Shown: piece after piece, positions 11,327 to 39,501 of the stretch
Layout of the letters: each line of letters opens with the position of its first letter
Position numbering within the stretch: position 1 is the stretch's first letter
Assembly (NCBI RefSeq): GCF_024502345.1
Contig: NZ_JALDNN010000001.1
Direction: 5' to 3' (one strand)
Length of the DNA stretch: 64,000 nucleotides
Source of the DNA: Escherichia coli
Lineage (GTDB): Bacteria > Pseudomonadota > Gammaproteobacteria > Enterobacterales > Enterobacteriaceae
Translations under genes and position numbers: made by a program
Notes under the pieces: generated by a model
What the model was told of the DNA's origin: nothing
Seen by the model: only the letters and a program-made list of their open reading frames with translations
The model's database searches: none

Positions 11327-11661
11327 TGGTAAGCCGATACGTACCCGATATGGGCGATCTGATTTGGGTTGATTTTGACCCGACAAAAGGTAGCGAGCAA
11401 GCTGGACATCGTCCAGCTGTTGTCCTGAGTCCTTTCATGTACAACAACAAAACAGGTATGTGTCTGTGTGTTCCTTATACAACGCAATCAAAAGGATATC
11501 CGTTCGAAGTTGTTTTATCCGGTCAGGAACGTGATGGCGTAGCGTTAGCTGATCAGGTAAAAAGTATCGCCTGGCGGGCAAGAGGAGCAACGAAGAAAGG
11601 AACAGTTGCCCCAGAGGAATTACAACTCATTAAAGCCAAAATTAACGTACTGATTGGGTAG
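11326..11661 (+). CDS. mazF: type II toxin MazF, mRNA interferase
   Basis: 111-aa ORF ([19 protein letters not shown]...), PemK/MazF family, start overlaps the mazE stop. Confidence 0.95.
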   Translation: MVSRYVPDMGDLIWVDFDPTKGSEQAGHRPAVVLSPFMYNNKTGMCLCVPYTTQSKGYPFEVVLSGQERDGVALADQVKSIAWRARGATKKGTVAPEELQLIKAKINVLIG

Positions 11662-11731
11662 TGTTACTAACTCACTTCTATTCTGGTCACAGGTTTCCAC
11701 CTGATAGACCCGCAATTTTCAGGACAATTCA

Positions 11732-12523
11732 ATGAATCAAATCGACCGTTTGCTCACTATTATGCAGCGCCTGCGCGATCCGGAAAACGGCTGCCCGTGG
11801 GATAAAGAGCAGACATTTGCCACCATTGCGCCTTACACCCTTGAAGAAACCTACGAAGTGCTGGACGCCATCGCCCGTGAAGATTTTGACGATCTTCGCG
11901 GTGAACTGGGCGATCTGCTATTCCAGGTGGTGTTTTACGCGCAAATGGCTCAGGAAGAAGGGCGCTTTGACTTTAATGATATTTGCGCTGCTATTAGCGA
12001 TAAATTAGAGCGTCGCCATCCGCATGTTTTTGCTGATAGTTCTGCCGAAAACAGTAGTGAAGTGCTTGCCCGTTGGGAGCAAATCAAAACCGAAGAGCGC
12101 GCGCAGAAAGCGCAGCATTCGGCGCTGGACGATATTCCTCGTAGTTTACCGGCTTTAATGCGTGCGCAAAAAATCCAGAAACGTTGCGCCAACGTTGGCT
12201 TCGATTGGACGACGCTTGGTCCGGTAGTCGATAAAGTCTACGAAGAGATCGACGAGGTGATGTACGAAGCGCGGCAGGCTGTTGTCGACCAGGCTAAACT
12301 GGAGGAGGAAATGGGGGACCTGCTGTTTGCCACGGTCAATCTGGCTCGTCATTTAGGGACAAAAGCGGAAATCGCATTGCAAAAAGCGAACGAAAAATTT
12401 GAGCGTCGTTTTCGCGAAGTGGAGCGTATTGTTGCCGCGCGTGGACTGGAAATGACAGGTGTTGACCTCGAAACAATGGAAGAAGTCTGGCAACAGGTAA
12501 AACGGCAGGAAATTGATCTCTAA
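11732..12523 (+). CDS. mazG: nucleoside triphosphate pyrophosphohydrolase MazG
   Basis: 263-aa ORF with tandem MazG domains, downstream of mazEF. Confidence 0.9.
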   Translation: MNQIDRLLTIMQRLRDPENGCPWDKEQTFATIAPYTLEETYEVLDAIAREDFDDLRGELGDLLFQVVFYAQMAQEEGRFDFNDICAAISDKLERRHPHVFADSSAENSSEVLARWEQIKTEERAQKAQHSALDDIPRSLPALMRAQKIQKRCANVGFDWTTLGPVVDKVYEEIDEVMYEARQAVVDQAKLEEEMGDLLFATVNLARHLGTKAEIALQKANEKFERRFREVERIVAARGLEMTGVDLETMEEVWQQVKRQEIDL

Positions 12524-16998: not shown

Positions 16999-17670
16999 AT
17001 GCAGTACCCGATTAACGAGATGTTCCAGACCCTGCAAGGTGAGGGTTACTTTACCGGCGTCCCCGCCATTTTTATTCGTTTACAGGGATGCCCGGTTGGC
17101 TGTGCCTGGTGCGACACCAAACACACCTGGGAAAAGCTTGAGGATCGGGAAGTCTCCCTTTTCAGCATTCTGGCGAAGACCAAAGAGAGTGATAAGTGGG
17201 GGGCGGCGAGCAGTGAAGACTTGTTGGCTGTCATTAGTCGCCAGGGATACACCGCGCGGCATGTGGTGATTACGGGTGGTGAGCCTTGCATTCATGATTT
17301 GCTACCACTGACTGATCTGCTCGAAAAGAACGGTTTTAGCTGCCAGATCGAAACCAGTGGTACTCATGAGGTACGCTGCACACCGAATACCTGGGTTACC
17401 GTATCACCAAAGCTGAACATGCGCGGCGGCTATGAAGTGTTGTCACAGGCACTGGAGCGAGCCAACGAAATCAAGCATCCAGTGGGGCGCGTACGTGATA
17501 TTGAAGCACTGGATGAACTACTGGCAACGCTGACCGATGATAAACCGCGAGTCATTGCACTGCAGCCGATTAGCCAAAAGGATGATGCCACACGTTTGTG
17601 CATTGAAACCTGCATTGCGCGTAATTGGCGTTTGTCGATGCAAACACATAAATATCTAAATATTGCCTGA
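16999..17670 (+). CDS. queE: 7-carboxy-7-deazaguanine synthase (radical SAM)
   Basis: 223-aa ORF with the unusual radical-SAM cysteine cluster CxxxxxxxxxxxxxCxxC (CPVGCAWCDTKH). Confidence 0.88.
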   Translation: MQYPINEMFQTLQGEGYFTGVPAIFIRLQGCPVGCAWCDTKHTWEKLEDREVSLFSILAKTKESDKWGAASSEDLLAVISRQGYTARHVVITGGEPCIHDLLPLTDLLEKNGFSCQIETSGTHEVRCTPNTWVTVSPKLNMRGGYEVLSQALERANEIKHPVGRVRDIEALDELLATLTDDKPRVIALQPISQKDDATRLCIETCIARNWRLSMQTHKYLNIA

Positions 17671-18009
17671 TTAAACATTTATAAGCGTTATAAATGGGTG
17701 GAACCTGTAAAGACTTCTACTCATTTATATTGTTTGTCGCCTCTGAAAACTCCTCCATTTTACCCATCCAGGGCTAATCATTAGCATTCTCTACAAATTC
17801 TGTGGCATTAATTTTTCGCTGGAGTGAAAATTATTGCGGTAAAGTTTGGTAGATTTTAGTTTGTATAGAGTTATTTTAAATATTTACCTTTTTAATCAAT
17901 GGATTAAGTGCTCTTTAACATAATGGATGTGTTGTTTGTGTGATACTATAAAGTTGGTAGATTGTGACTGGCTTAAAAAATCATTAATTAATAATAGGTT
18001 ATGTTTAGA

Positions 18010-18832
18010 GTGTTCCCCGCGCCAGCGGGGATAAACCGCGCGATTTGTTAGCGCCCGTTGCGCCTGGTGGGTGTTCCCCGCGCCAGCGGGGATAAACCGC
18101 GCGAGTTCGTGCGCATGGGGCGCATTTTTGGCGTGTTCCCCGCGCCAGCGGGGATAAACCGCGGCGTTCATGCCCTCCAGCACTGTTACGCGGGTGTTCC
18201 CCGCGCCAGCGGGGATAAACCGTAGTCAAGCGGTAATTCATCGCCTGCAGATCCGAGTTCCCCGCGCCAGCGGGGATAAACCGGCTAATTTACGTAATTT
18301 ACGTGCTATTGCACTGAGTTCCCCGCGCCAGCGGGGATAAACCGTGGGTCATGCCGGTGATCGCCTGCCCGTCGTGGAGTTCCCCGCGCCAGCGGGGATA
18401 AACCATCACCACCGCTTGTCATAAAATTAGCGTCATAGAGTTCCCCGCGCCAGCGGGGATAAACCGGGGAGTGGCACTTCTGGGGTAGCGGCGGCCCTGA
18501 GTTCCCCGCGCCAGCGGGGATAAACCGTCAACGCGCTCAGACGTTGCGTGAGTGAACCAGAGTTCCCCGCGCCAGCGGGGATAAACCGAAATATCCAGGG
18601 CTGGGCTGGAGGCAGACGGCGAGTTCCCCGCGCCAGCGGGGATAAACCGGCGTTGATGTTCTTGCGGGTGTTGCAAATATTGAGTTCCCCGCGCCAGCGG
18701 GGATAAACCGTTTCAGCAGTTCAGCGTAACACCGACGGTCACGAGTTCCCCGCGCCAGCGGGGATAAACCGCCCGGAATGCATTCTGAAGGTTTGCTGTA
18801 TATGAGTTCCCCGCGCCAGCGGGGATAAACCA
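18010..18832 (+). CRISPR. type I-E CRISPR array, 14 repeats and 13 spacers, leader on the low-coordinate side
   Basis: 29-bp repeat G(T/A)GTTCCCCGCGCCAGCGGGGATAAACCG at 18010, 18071, 18133, 18194, 18255, 18316, 18377, 18438, 18499, 18560, 18621, 18682, 18743, 18804; spacers 32 bp (one of 33). Confidence 0.97.
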
Positions 18833-19286
18833 CCATATAACCCGTTATCTCTTTCTCAAGTTTTTATATTAGCAGTACTTGTAATAAGCAACATATCCAC
18901 GTAACACCTCATGTTCAAAATAGTTCTCCATGCCAGAGAGGTTCACAATTATCGATACAAAAAATTAAATTTAATCAAAGTGTTATTTGTATGACTCTTA
19001 AATCGTTAAGAAATTTTAATCTATTATTTTTTTAATATTGAATTAATGCCTGTTAATTTTTTCTTTAGAATAACAGTATATTTTTTAAGCTTGTTATTCA
19101 TTGGTTAAGTAATAAATCTGGAAGTTTGTCTTTGTTTTGAGGCTAATGAGTGGTTTTACATAACCGCCTCTATACGCTGTTGATGAATAGTTCTTATGAA
19201 TAAAGATATCCAGTTCATACTTTAAGTGAAAATTGATAAAGTGCGATTCGTATTGTCTTTAATTCTAAAGACATCGAGTGTAGTTA

Positions 19287-19424
19287 ATATTCCTTGTAAA
19301 AACAGGGATAAACCGAACTAGTTAAAGTTTTTATTATGTTCCCTGCATCAGCGGGGATAAACCGGACTTGTTATCATTTTTTAAGTTGTCGAACTTATGT
19401 TCCCCGCGTCAGCGGGGATAACCA
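19287..19424 (+). CRISPR. degenerate CRISPR remnant (2-3 eroded repeats)
   Basis: cagggataaaccg (19303-19315), atgttccctgcatcagcggggataaaccg (19336-19364), atgttccccgcgtcagcggggataacca (19397-19424); one 20-bp and one 32-bp interval. Confidence 0.65.
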
Positions 19425-19437
19425 TTTAGGTATGTTC

Positions 19438-19463
19438 AGGCCGGGCAGTTTTCCGCCCGGCCT
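19438..19463 (-). terminator. GC-rich hairpin just downstream of ygcE
   Basis: aggccgggc-agttttcc-gcccggcct stem-loop; weak U-tract. Confidence 0.35.
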
Positions 19464-19470
19464 ACCTCAT

Positions 19471-20949
19471 TCACGCATTCGACCAGCTCTGGATCGAATC
19501 CACATTCCCCAATTCCCCATGCATCACTTCATACGATTTTTTCAGGATCACATCAGTATGTTTGGTTAGGTCTTTGAAAATGCCTTTATTCATCGCGTCG
19601 TAGCGTTTGGCATTGCTCTCAATCGGTATAAAGATATCTTTCACGCGAACCATCTTATCAACAGCCGTTGCGTAATCCGGGTATAGCCCCAGACCTACCG
19701 CTGTATTAATCGCTGCTCCCAGACTTGCACAACCGTTAATGGCGTTACGGCGTGCCGGAAGGTTGAACACGTCGGCAAAAATTTGCATAAACAGATCGCT
19801 GTTCGAACCGCCGCCAGTAATGATCACATGCTTCGCAAAGTGATTCATTTCATTACACATATTGTCGTAATTGTTCTTCAGCGTTAGCGCCACGCTTTCC
19901 AATATCGAACGATATATCCATGCGTAATCCATGCTGGAATCAAAGCCGATCATAATCCCGCGTTTGTACGGTTCCCACGGATTGGTCAGCCAGTCCAGCA
20001 CCGTCATCAGCCCATTACAGCCAGGTGGCACACTAGAGGCTTTCTTGTTGAGTAAATCTTCCGGTGAAAGATCCTGCGCCCTGGCATCCTGAATTAACGA
20101 CTCGCCTAACATGTCACGCAGCCAGCTCACCGTCCACATACCTTTGCGAATACCGTAACCTTCATACAGCAATGTTTGCGGAATAGAAGACATAATCGGC
20201 CAGTACGCCACCGGATCTTTCGGCAGTGCTTTGCCGTTCATCATCAATGCGATGTAAGTGCCAAGAGAAATTACCGCAGTTTCATCATCCAGTAATCCGG
20301 CCCCCAGAGCTTCTACCGGTTTATCACTGGTGGTACAAACAACCGGCAGTCCTGCCGGGAAATGTGTCGCCAGTGCGGCTTGTGGTGTGATATGTCCGAG
20401 GACGGTGCCAGGCATTTGCACATCAAACAGCATATGACGGGGGATATTAAACTTATCCATTACCGCAGCATCTTCGCTCCATGCCCAGCTCTTATAATCC
20501 ACCGGCCACTGACCAAAATAGTTGGCGATATTGTCTTTAAACTCGCCGGTTAAGCGATGCGTCAGATAACCCGAAAAAGAGGTGACATACGCCACGTCAG
20601 GATTCGTATGTTCGTAAGGGCGTGTAACGCGTGCATCCTGCCAGCTAATCAACGGCGCAGCTGGCGTGCCGTCGGCTTTCAATAACGCACGGCAGCAACG
20701 GATGGAGCCCAGGCCGATGCCAACAATATCTTCTTTATTCCCGGCAAACTGGCTCATCAAATCGTGACCTGCAAAACATAATGATGCCCATAAATCGTCG
20801 TCAGGATGTTCTGCAGTATCGGCATAAGGCGTGTGCATCGGCTGTAATAAGCCTTTACCTTCGCAAACCACATTACCTTCCAGATCGTACATCACCACTT
20901 TTGTGCTCTGACTTCCGCCATCAATCCCTATGATGTATTTTTTCGACAT
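19471..20949 (-). CDS. ygcE: FGGY-family carbohydrate kinase
   Basis: 492-aa ORF with FGGY kinase N- and C-terminal signatures (IGIDGGSQSTKVV, GGGSNSDLFMQIFADV). Confidence 0.85.
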   Translation of the reverse strand: MSKKYIIGIDGGSQSTKVVMYDLEGNVVCEGKGLLQPMHTPYADTAEHPDDDLWASLCFAGHDLMSQFAGNKEDIVGIGLGSIRCCRALLKADGTPAAPLISWQDARVTRPYEHTNPDVAYVTSFSGYLTHRLTGEFKDNIANYFGQWPVDYKSWAWSEDAAVMDKFNIPRHMLFDVQMPGTVLGHITPQAALATHFPAGLPVVCTTSDKPVEALGAGLLDDETAVISLGTYIALMMNGKALPKDPVAYWPIMSSIPQTLLYEGYGIRKGMWTVSWLRDMLGESLIQDARAQDLSPEDLLNKKASSVPPGCNGLMTVLDWLTNPWEPYKRGIMIGFDSSMDYAWIYRSILESVALTLKNNYDNMCNEMNHFAKHVIITGGGSNSDLFMQIFADVFNLPARRNAINGCASLGAAINTAVGLGLYPDYATAVDKMVRVKDIFIPIESNAKRYDAMNKGIFKDLTKHTDVILKKSYEVMHGELGNVDSIQSWSNA

Positions 20950-35320: not shown

Positions 35321-35528
35321 TGCGAGCAGCATTCCTGATTTTAAACGTGAACGCCGCTGGAAGAATTATCAGGTATAGAATGGCGTCGGGTGCTTGAGGC
35401 TGTCTGGCGTTAAGCATTCGCGAGGTTCCAGATGGACAAAAGCCCCAGGCGATATTTCTATCAACCTGAGGCTCGCGTTCGAACGTAGCAATTCGAATGT
35501 TAGTCTCTTCTTTGCAGGGAGGCAAGAC

Positions 35529-35681
35529 ATGCTGACAAAATATGCCCTTGTGGCAATCATAGTGCTGTGTTTTACAGTACTGGGATTCACGCTGATGGTA
35601 GGCGACTCGTTGTGTGAGTTGAGTATCAGAGAACGTGGTATGGAGTTTAAGGCTGTTCTCGCTTACGAATCGAAGAAGTAG
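35529..35681 (+). CDS. hokX: Hok/Gef-family type I toxin (small membrane peptide)
   Basis: 50-aa [53 protein letters not shown]: single TM helix plus the family C-terminal pattern SLCEL-IR--G-E--A-LAYES; the symbol is my recollection for this position. Confidence 0.7.
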
Positions 35682-35870: not shown

Positions 35871-38135
<2,265 letters not shown>

Positions 38136-38231: not shown

Positions 38232-38443
38232 GTGTTCCCCGCGCCAGCGGGGATAAACCGGGGCCGACGGTCGCAGTATTGGACCATTTCAAGTGTTCCC
38301 CGCGCCAGCGGGGATAAACCGACTCTTACATGCTTAATCAGATTCTGGCGGATGTGTTCCCCGCGCCAGCGGGGATAAACCGGGCGCACTGGATGCGATG
38401 ATGGATATCACTTAGAATTCCCCGCCCCTGCGGTAGAACTCCC
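38232..38443 (+). CRISPR. short type I-E CRISPR array: 3 intact repeats, 3 spacers and a degenerate terminal repeat
   Basis: GTGTTCCCCGCGCCAGCGGGGATAAACCG at 38232, 38293, 38354; 32-bp spacers; degenerate repeat gaattccccgcccctgcggtagaactccc at 38415-38443; truncated leader 38136-38231. Confidence 0.92.
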
Positions 38444-38463: not shown

Positions 38464-39501
38464 TCAAGACGCCTTCGCCAGCTCCTTCACCAACGGTAGC
38501 ATTATCCGCATAACGTCACGGCAGCGACGTTCTATTCTTCCAGGAAGTGCCTTATCAATATGCTGTTGATTATCCAGTCTTACGTCATGCCAGCTATTTC
38601 CCGCAGGGAATGCGGCTGTTTTTGCGCGTTGCTGATAACCATCCTTATTCCCAAGATTCCAGTTAGTCGCTTCCACCGAAAGTACAGCAATGCCCGCTTT
38701 GTCGAATATTTCTGCGTCATTACAACACCCAGTGCCTTTCGGATAATTTTTATTCAGACTCGGATTGGTCGTTGCGGCTATTCCGTGACTGCGCGCAATT
38801 GCCAGCGCCCTGTCGCGCGTTAATTTCCTTACTGATTCAGGGGTTTTTACACCGCTGTTGAAATACAATTTATCGCCAACAATTAAGTTATCGAGATTAA
38901 TCACCAGCAGCGTATTTTTCTTTTCGGTGTCACTCATCCGCTTGAGTAAATTCTCAGCGCCTAATTTCCCTTCCTCTTCGCCGCTGGTCGCCACAAATCG
39001 AATACCATACTCGGTAGGCGTATTTTTCAGGCGTTCTGCCAGTTCCAGCATGACACCTAAACCTGCGGCGTTATCATCCATTCCTTGTAACGTCAGCCCG
39101 CCGAGATTGGCATCGGCGTCAGCATCGCTCAGCGGGGCGTAAGTATCCAGATGCGCCATAATGATGATCTGCTGCGGCGCTTTGCCTTCATGAGCGGCAA
39201 TCACCGTACTTCCCGTCACGTTATGCCAGCTCTTACGATTATCGCGGGCGGTATAAATATACCGACTATTAAATGTCCGAATATCACTGCGATAACCCAT
39301 TTGCTGAAACTGTTGGCGAATATAATCGGCAGATAACATTTCTGCAGGAGTTCCGGTCATGCGTCCCGGAAAGAAAGTAGCAATATGTCGTGCCTGAGTA
39401 TTAGCAAAATCGCCAGGTTTAGGTGACGAGGCGTGTACGGGGAGAATAAAGCATACGCCGAGCGCCAGGGCAGCGGTACGGTGGCGCAATGCGGAAAACA
39501 T
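38464..39501 (-). CDS. iap: alkaline phosphatase isozyme conversion aminopeptidase
   Basis: 345-aa ORF with signal peptide and M28-type metallopeptidase features; position next to the array and cysD. Confidence 0.88.
   Translation of the reverse strand: MFSALRHRTAALALGVCFILPVHASSPKPGDFANTQARHIATFFPGRMTGTPAEMLSADYIRQQFQQMGYRSDIRTFNSRYIYTARDNRKSWHNVTGSTVIAAHEGKAPQQIIIMAHLDTYAPLSDADADANLGGLTLQGMDDNAAGLGVMLELAERLKNTPTEYGIRFVATSGEEEGKLGAENLLKRMSDTEKKNTLLVINLDNLIVGDKLYFNSGVKTPESVRKLTRDRALAIARSHGIAATTNPSLNKNYPKGTGCCNDAEIFDKAGIAVLSVEATNWNLGNKDGYQQRAKTAAFPAGNSWHDVRLDNQQHIDKALPGRIERRCRDVMRIMLPLVKELAKAS

Follow-up and report, generated by a model that had tools for sequence, protein, structure and literature searches.

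A small cluster of type I-E repeats known as CRISPR2.2 lies in the CRISPR-II (ygcE-queE) locus of Escherichia coli. It was reportedly named and described in 2010 by Diez-Villasenor et al. in Microbiology, the source of the nomenclature. Later papers describe CRISPR2.2 (PMC4489801, PMC3903273, PMC3737337, PMC10910852) as having three repeats and two invariable spacers (PMC4489801) and as being separated from the main array, CRISPR2.3, by about 0.5 kb of AT-rich DNA (PMC3903273, PMC10910852), and leaders have been reported in the literature for CRISPR2.1 and CRISPR2.3 only. CRISPR2.2 was reported to be undetectable in a CRISPRCasFinder-based survey (PMC7546912), and in RefSeq/PGAP the main array alone is annotated as CRISPR and CRISPR2.2 is left unannotated. 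In the 64,000-nt stretch of E. coli DNA that we analyzed (the window), a feature at 19287-19424 shares with the published CRISPR2.2 the site between ygcE and CRISPR2.3/queE, the 0.5-kb AT-rich gap, the three repeats, and the two invariable spacers, and differs from it in nothing of substance. The locus was thus already known and its detection here is a rediscovery, with little discovery value given that CRISPR2.2 was named in 2010 and has been cited repeatedly. We conclude that the feature is very probably CRISPR2.2, a vestige of the far end of the E. coli CRISPR-II type I-E array that was cut off by an inserted segment. The details added here are that its first unit is full-length and keeps a hairpin, that its third unit is common to E. 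albertii and E. whittamii, and that it is the least polymorphic part of the interval.

Layout of the CRISPR-II locus in the window

The left flank of CRISPR-II is formed by queE (ygcF; 16999-17670, plus strand), a 223-aa ORF that is annotated as queE at the equivalent site in K-12 and E2865. It is followed by the AT-rich leader of the main array (leader 2.3; 17671-18009, plus strand; 339 nt, 30% G+C), which matches that of K-12 at 100% and those of B2 E. coli and E. albertii at 93-95% identity, and in the region of which the array promoter has been placed (PMC3903273). The main intact type I-E array, CRISPR2.3 (18010-18832, plus strand), has 14 repeats and 13 spacers, with 0-1 mismatch in the repeat cores and a period that is mostly 61 nt, and its final repeat terminates in ...ACCA. 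One internal repeat (18377-18405) also has a final A rather than G, and one spacer is 33 nt long. The array mixes two repeat variants, the four leader-proximal repeats starting with GTG (the ‘CRISPR-T’ type) and the ten distal repeats starting with GAG (the ‘CRISPR-A’ type; PMC3737337), and this mixture suggests that the repeat type or the acquisition machinery changed during the growth of CRISPR2.3.

Beyond CRISPR2.3 lies a 0.45-kb AT-rich non-coding segment (18833-19286; 454 nt; 28% G+C over 18836-19335), and then the mini-array CRISPR2.2 (19287-19424, plus strand; 138 nt), which consists of three repeat units and two intervals, all on the plus strand. When scored against the type I-E repeat consensus GAGTTCCCCGCGCCAGCGGGGATAAACCG, unit 1 (atattccttgtaaaaacagggataaaccg; 19287-19315), a heavily eroded full-length repeat, matches at 18 of 29 positions, and units 2 and 3 match at 24 of 29 each. 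Unit 2 (atgttccctgcatcagcggggataaaccg; 19336-19364) retains an intact hairpin and an intact 3' handle, ATAAACCG, while unit 3 (atgttccccgcgtcagcggggataacca; 19397-19424) is a 28-nt terminal repeat with T at position 13, one A deleted, and a final A. Interval 1 (19316-19335) is a short ‘spacer’ of 20 nt, giving a period of 49 nt from unit 1 to unit 2, and interval 2 (19365-19396) is a spacer of the canonical 32 nt, giving a period of 61 nt from unit 2 to unit 3. A preliminary description of this DNA had reported three repeat-like units with substitutions, intervals of 20 and 32 bp, a distance of about 450 bp from the intact array in AT-rich DNA, and a location between the main array and ygcE; all of this was borne out, the repeat matches being far above chance, the distance from the array end at 18832 being 454 nt, and queE and ygcE standing on either side. 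It was also right that unit 1 is repeat-derived, but only the last 13 nt had been recognized as such, and the unit is a full-length derivative.

Between unit 3 and the stop codon of ygcE there is a G+C-rich hairpin (19439-19462), a predicted stem in the fold of 19270-19470, which is kept in all of the Escherichia loci examined and presumably acts as the ygcE terminator. The right flank is the convergent gene ygcE (19471-20949, minus strand), a 492-aa ORF for an FGGY-family carbohydrate kinase.

Further along the window there is an in-frame fusion ORF, cas3'::'cas2 (35874-38135, plus strand; 753 aa), in which Pfam places Cas3_HD, DEAD, and Cas3 C-terminal domains at aa 21-672 and positions 19-86 of the Cas2 profile at aa 677-744. 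The block cse1-cse2-cas7-cas5-cas6e-cas1 is deleted in this strain, which is without Cascade, Cas6e, and Cas1, and because of this deletion both of its arrays are orphaned. CRISPR2.1 (38232-38443, plus strand), which adjoins iap (38464-39501, minus strand), is short, with three perfect repeats and three spacers followed by a strongly degenerate terminal repeat, gaattccccgcccctgcggtagaactc. The sok antitoxin RNA lies between cysH and cas3 at 35388-35544 (Rfam, 106.7 bits), and a hok/sok module is known from the CRISPR-I region (PMC3903273). At gathering thresholds sok was the sole Rfam match, and at E ≤ 10 over 17600-19600 Rfam returned chance-level matches only, even the intact array giving no match to a CRISPR repeat family.

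Architectures of the CRISPR-II interval in Escherichia

CRISPR2.2 is widespread in E. coli. The mini-array of K-12 MG1655 is without any difference from that of the window over its 138 nt, and C600 and other K-12 derivatives are likewise 100% identical. Of 5426 complete E. coli genomes, 4470 contain the 641-nt stretch 18830-19470, which is chromosomal in every case and is covered to 80% or more in 4120, and about three quarters of the genomes (~4100/5426 complete) carry the mini-array almost unchanged.

A second arrangement, with a single array, is seen elsewhere in the species and genus. In the B2 strain ATCC 25922, the leader is followed by one repeat, one 32-nt spacer, and then gagttccccgcgtcagcggggataacca and the same downstream hairpin, and about 1000 genomes, Nissle 1917 included, are at least 99% identical to this arrangement. 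In strain JNE21-009 of serotype O166:H15 a four-spacer array closes in unit 3. Among species-representative genomes scanned with QueE, the outgroups obtained were E. albertii and E. whittamii, while E. fergusonii, E. marmotae, and Salmonella did not come up. E. albertii has the leader, two spacers, and a terminal unit ...cgcgtcagcggggataacca tttaggtatgttcagg, and in E. whittamii the leader is followed directly by unit 3 with no other repeat. The 0.45-kb segment is missing from all four of these loci and unit 3 adjoins the same downstream sequence in each of them. On this comparison of sequences, the CRISPR-II array of Escherichia ancestrally terminated in unit 3, and the single-array state is that of both outgroups having an array. 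The single arrays, designated CRISPR2.2-3 (B2 strains such as LF82, Nissle, and ATCC 25922; O166:H15; E. albertii), have leader 2.3, unit 3, the downstream hairpin, and ygcE in common with the arrangement in the window, and differ from it in lacking the 0.45-kb segment and units 1 and 2 and in having another oldest spacer.

Three further observations concern this interval. In E. coli SCPM-O-B-8794, a close relative, the queE-ygcE interval has neither leader nor repeat nor the 0.45-kb segment and holds an unrelated sequence of about 100 nt instead, a third architecture. In two E. coli strains an IS1 lies inside the 0.45-kb segment, and from there through ygcE and its neighbors, CRISPR2.2 included, the DNA is deleted. 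The T at position 13 of unit 3 (19409) reads as the consensus C in O55:H7 USDA5905 and in strain 7/2, which could reflect reversion or gene conversion from CRISPR2.3 repeats.

We propose that in an ancestor of most non-B2 E. coli the array became interrupted by the 0.45-kb AT-rich non-coding segment, a reading already voiced in PMC10910852. As a result, the oldest repeat-spacer units would have lost their connection to the leader. Cas1-Cas2 adds spacers at the leader only, and the units that had been cut off would for this reason have become frozen, their repeats accumulating mostly GC-to-AT substitutions. The outcome resembles the decay seen in general at the trailer end of CRISPR arrays, where the leader-distal units are the oldest, are not renewed, and carry substitutions, and unit 3 indeed shows typical 3'-end degeneration. 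It differs from it in that the distal units of CRISPR2.2 are 0.45 kb apart from the array and in that the most degraded unit is the one nearest to the array and not the last. With two outgroup species sampled, the event may also have run the other way, single arrays being produced later when a CRISPR2.3 repeat recombined with unit 3.

The local alignment of the segment to leader 2.3 scored 29, which is at chance level (23.4 ± 3.0 in shuffles), and duplication of a leader was rejected as there is no likeness to leader 2.3 or 2.1 beyond shuffled controls. An IS or MITE origin is not supported: the segment has no terminal inverted repeats, is in single copy per genome, contains no ORF of at least 30 aa wholly inside it (the sole ORF of the area, at 19226-19321 and of 31 aa, extends into unit 1), and is without homologs when compared with phages, true plasmids, and the queE loci of other Enterobacteriaceae (80 loci). 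The sequence GGGATAAACC, which is present on both sides of the segment, is simply part of the flanking repeats. No promoter-like site was found within 300 nt upstream of the mini-array, and no plus-strand terminator-like site between CRISPR2.3 and CRISPR2.2.

These data bear on a different history, in which CRISPR2.2 began as an array of its own, the segment represents either the decayed leader of CRISPR2.2 or the CRISPR2.3 trailer, and the single arrays arose when secondary repeat-to-repeat recombination deleted the segment. The AT content of the segment does resemble that of a leader, but it has no detectable similarity to leader 2.3 or 2.1, there is no promoter-like site near unit 1, and the unit closest to the supposed leader is the most degraded, which is the opposite of normal arrays. 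Other points in favor of such a history come from the repeats. Specifically, the terminal repeats of the single arrays have a local 5' end, starting with GAG in E. coli and GGG in E. albertii versus ATG in unit 3 of CRISPR2.2, as a crossover inside the repeat would give; the last CRISPR2.3 repeat has a final A like a true terminal repeat; and the last CRISPR2.3 repeat of ETEC4079 carries the T13 variant of unit 3. Nevertheless, this history would require independent losses in three lineages, and none of the loci examined outside E. coli contains the segment. We consider this history rather unlikely, and favor CRISPR2.2 as the far end of the CRISPR-II array, cut off by the segment.

Diversity, spacers, and hairpins of the mini-array

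Sequence diversity was estimated from an alignment of nine strains chosen across the identity range, in which sites are linked and recombination is evident, so that the tests are rough. The mini-array is the diversity minimum of the interval, with a pi of 0.012 and six variable sites in 138 nt, compared with a pi of 0.071 in the left part of the gap, 0.034 in its right part, 0.073 in the terminator region, and 0.045 at the 3' end of ygcE. Variable sites number 64 of 451 in the AT-rich gap and 20 of 144 in the terminator region together with the ygcE 3' end, and by Fisher's test the mini-array differs from the gap (p = 0.0014), from the right half of the gap (p = 0.048), and from the terminator region plus ygcE (p = 0.007). 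Among complete genomes, 3925 of 4156 match the mini-array at 99% identity or more and 2751 of 4150 match the neighboring 138 nt as closely, but such genome-wide identity bands are partly distorted by a SNP (19261) private to this strain and by loss of megablast seeds in the divergent left part, and the nine-strain alignment is preferred. The mini-array is better called frozen than actively decaying. That it should be the diversity minimum is not expected of a purely neutral relic, although a pi of 0.012 is ordinary for core DNA of E. coli. The 0.45-kb segment has an unusually polymorphic left half (18884-19103), with a pi of 0.085-0.109 in 60-nt windows, several times that of the right half and the mini-array. 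Block substitutions, GCCAG/ATATG for example, occur there, and the pattern is suggestive of recombination or of old divergent haplotypes.

The intervals are equally constant. Both are invariant in the nine diverse strains, and 4048 of 4062 carrier genomes (99.7%) have exactly the same 32-nt spacer. CRISPR2.2 thus shows no turnover of spacers from strain to strain, and the DNA upstream of it, though AT-rich, resembles leaders 2.3 and 2.1 no more than chance would give. Searches of IMG/VR, phages, plasmids, and E. coli genomes gave no credible protospacer for this spacer, and there is no second site for it in any E. coli genome (no target of at least 20 nt) or on plasmids. Several apparent matches were set aside. 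An IMG/VR match, obtained with a pattern tolerating a mismatch at every sixth position, was to a contig that is the chromosomal CRISPR2.2 locus itself; phage matches reached at most 24/27 with E ≥ 0.3; and the full-length plasmid matches were to complete chromosomes mislabelled as plasmids. As observations on the databases, IMGVR_UViG_2531839665_000019 (‘viral’, 39.7 kb) holds the E. coli ygcE-CRISPR2.2 region at 11600-12000 and is a mis-binned chromosome fragment or an over-extended prophage call, and the PLSDB entries NZ_OL790696.1, NZ_CP134663.1, and NZ_CP141089.1, which gave the sole full-length ‘plasmid’ matches, are complete E. coli chromosomes of 4.8-4.9 Mb labelled as plasmids. In the literature searched, no paper contains the spacer sequence.

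All three units are predicted to keep the palindromic core for a Cas6e-type stem (7 bp with a 4-nt loop). In unit 1 the predicted 7-bp stem and 4-nt loop are in the consensus register, although two of its C-G pairs are now U-A and one is now a G-U wobble, and a stem pairing like that of unit 1 is possible by chance in only 2 of 890 heptamers of the surrounding AT-rich DNA. The predicted hairpin energies are -7.9, -12.1, and -15.1 kcal/mol for units 1, 2, and 3, respectively, the last being equal to that of the consensus (-15.1 kcal/mol). The 49-nt spacing of units 1 and 2 has no explanation by simple decay. Unit 1 plus interval 1 is 74% identical over 46 nt to unit 2 plus the start of interval 2, and interval 1 matches the start of interval 2 in register at 12 of 20 positions, which was equalled by 102 of 5000 shuffles; these figures are no more than suggestive of a partial tandem duplication of unit 2 and the start of interval 2.

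The constancy of the mini-array raises the question of whether it is kept by purifying selection, either as a crRNA that is fixed throughout the species and has a regulatory target outside immunity or as a structured RNA or DNA element that insulates the convergent CRISPR2.3 and ygcE transcripts. The diversity minimum, with p = 0.0014 against the gap and p = 0.007 against the terminator region plus ygcE, is in favor of this, but it comes from nine aligned strains with linked sites and evident recombination, and the pi is an ordinary one for the species. The retention of all three hairpins, in unit 1 through paired substitutions, is likewise in favor, but by our own estimate neutral GC-to-AT transitions would give the paired changes of unit 1 with a probability of about 0.3. 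The hairpin of unit 1 was thus rejected as proof of selection, since all of the pairs would be kept by chance about that often given the transitions observed. Unit 3 is almost unchanged among E. coli, E. albertii, and E. whittamii, and the intervals are invariant, as described above; nevertheless, about 1000 genomes, B2 and others, are without units 1 and 2 and the spacer, and IS1-mediated deletions remove the locus in some strains. In no E. coli genome does the spacer have a self-target or other target of at least 20 nt, the search for promoter and terminator signals gave none, and the mini-array persists unchanged in strains without cas genes, such as the one analyzed here. Activity has been reported for orphan arrays without cas genes, an example being RliB-CRISPR of Listeria. 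That system is similar in being a short array without adjacent cas genes that is conserved across a species, and it differs in that activity was reported there, while CRISPR2.2 is not known to be transcribed, processed, or linked to a phenotype; the comparison is relevant only to the possibility of selection. Altogether we judge maintenance by selection to be very unlikely, and take the mini-array to be the cut-off remnant of the CRISPR-II array.

The repeat identity of the units can be set against explicit expectations. The 27-nt repeat core with at most three mismatches has 18 matches in the window, unit 2 among them, with 0.00 expected from shuffles, and the 11-mer GGGATAAACCG occurs 17 times in the window, always inside repeat units and including units 1 and 2, with 0.01 expected. 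A chance likeness of the three units to the repeat, arising in AT-rich intergenic sequence, is next to inconceivable, as it is favored by the weak 5' half of unit 1 alone (7/18 matches) and is opposed by these expectations, by the preserved hairpin register, and by the fact that intact arrays of other strains and species close in a repeat homologous to unit 3. The preliminary description had named two findings that would speak against a decayed array, namely chance-level similarity to the repeat and no intact array in relatives, and neither was encountered; the comparison of the ygcE-queE interval across strains that it had suggested uncovered fuller, leader-driven arrays ending in unit 3. Its view of the feature as a second, decaying array is supported, with two refinements. 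CRISPR2.2 is a separate cluster of type I-E repeats, but is more aptly regarded as the far end of the CRISPR-II array, cut off from the rest, than as an independent array, and it is eroded and leaderless, but no decay is visible within E. coli, where its intervals are invariant and it is the least polymorphic stretch.

Potential function and implications

CRISPR2.2 appears to be non-functional, to judge from the missing leader, the lack of spacer turnover, and the lack of Cascade, Cas6e, and Cas1 in this strain, and it would contribute nothing to adaptation. In the strain analyzed here there are no cognate cas genes for processing and interference, and CRISPR2.2 is probably inert because the cas3'::'cas2 deletion has removed Cascade, Cas6e, and Cas1. 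Any transcript of CRISPR2.2 in this strain would be neither processable nor usable, with cse1 to cas1, including cas6e, gone. In a cas+ strain, read-through from CRISPR2.3 could yield one 61-nt crRNA with the fixed 32-nt spacer, since units 2 and 3 are predicted to keep the Cas6e hairpin, unit 2 keeps the 8-nt 5' handle, and there is no plus-strand terminator-like site before CRISPR2.2. The candidate crRNA would consist of AUAAACCG + GACUUGUUAUCAUUUUUUAAGUUGUCGAACUU + AUGUUCCCCGCGUCAGCGGGG.

If the low diversity of the mini-array did reflect selection, CRISPR2.2 would be an example of a conserved orphan crRNA, for which the evidence is weak. The locus has some practical value. Automated annotation misses CRISPR2.2, and pipelines for spacer typing or for counting arrays should therefore reckon with a fixed, uninformative mini-array 0.45 kb past CRISPR2.3. 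In addition, the presence or absence of the 0.45-kb segment is a clean marker that separates two CRISPR-II architectures, and unit 3 is the genus-wide terminal repeat.
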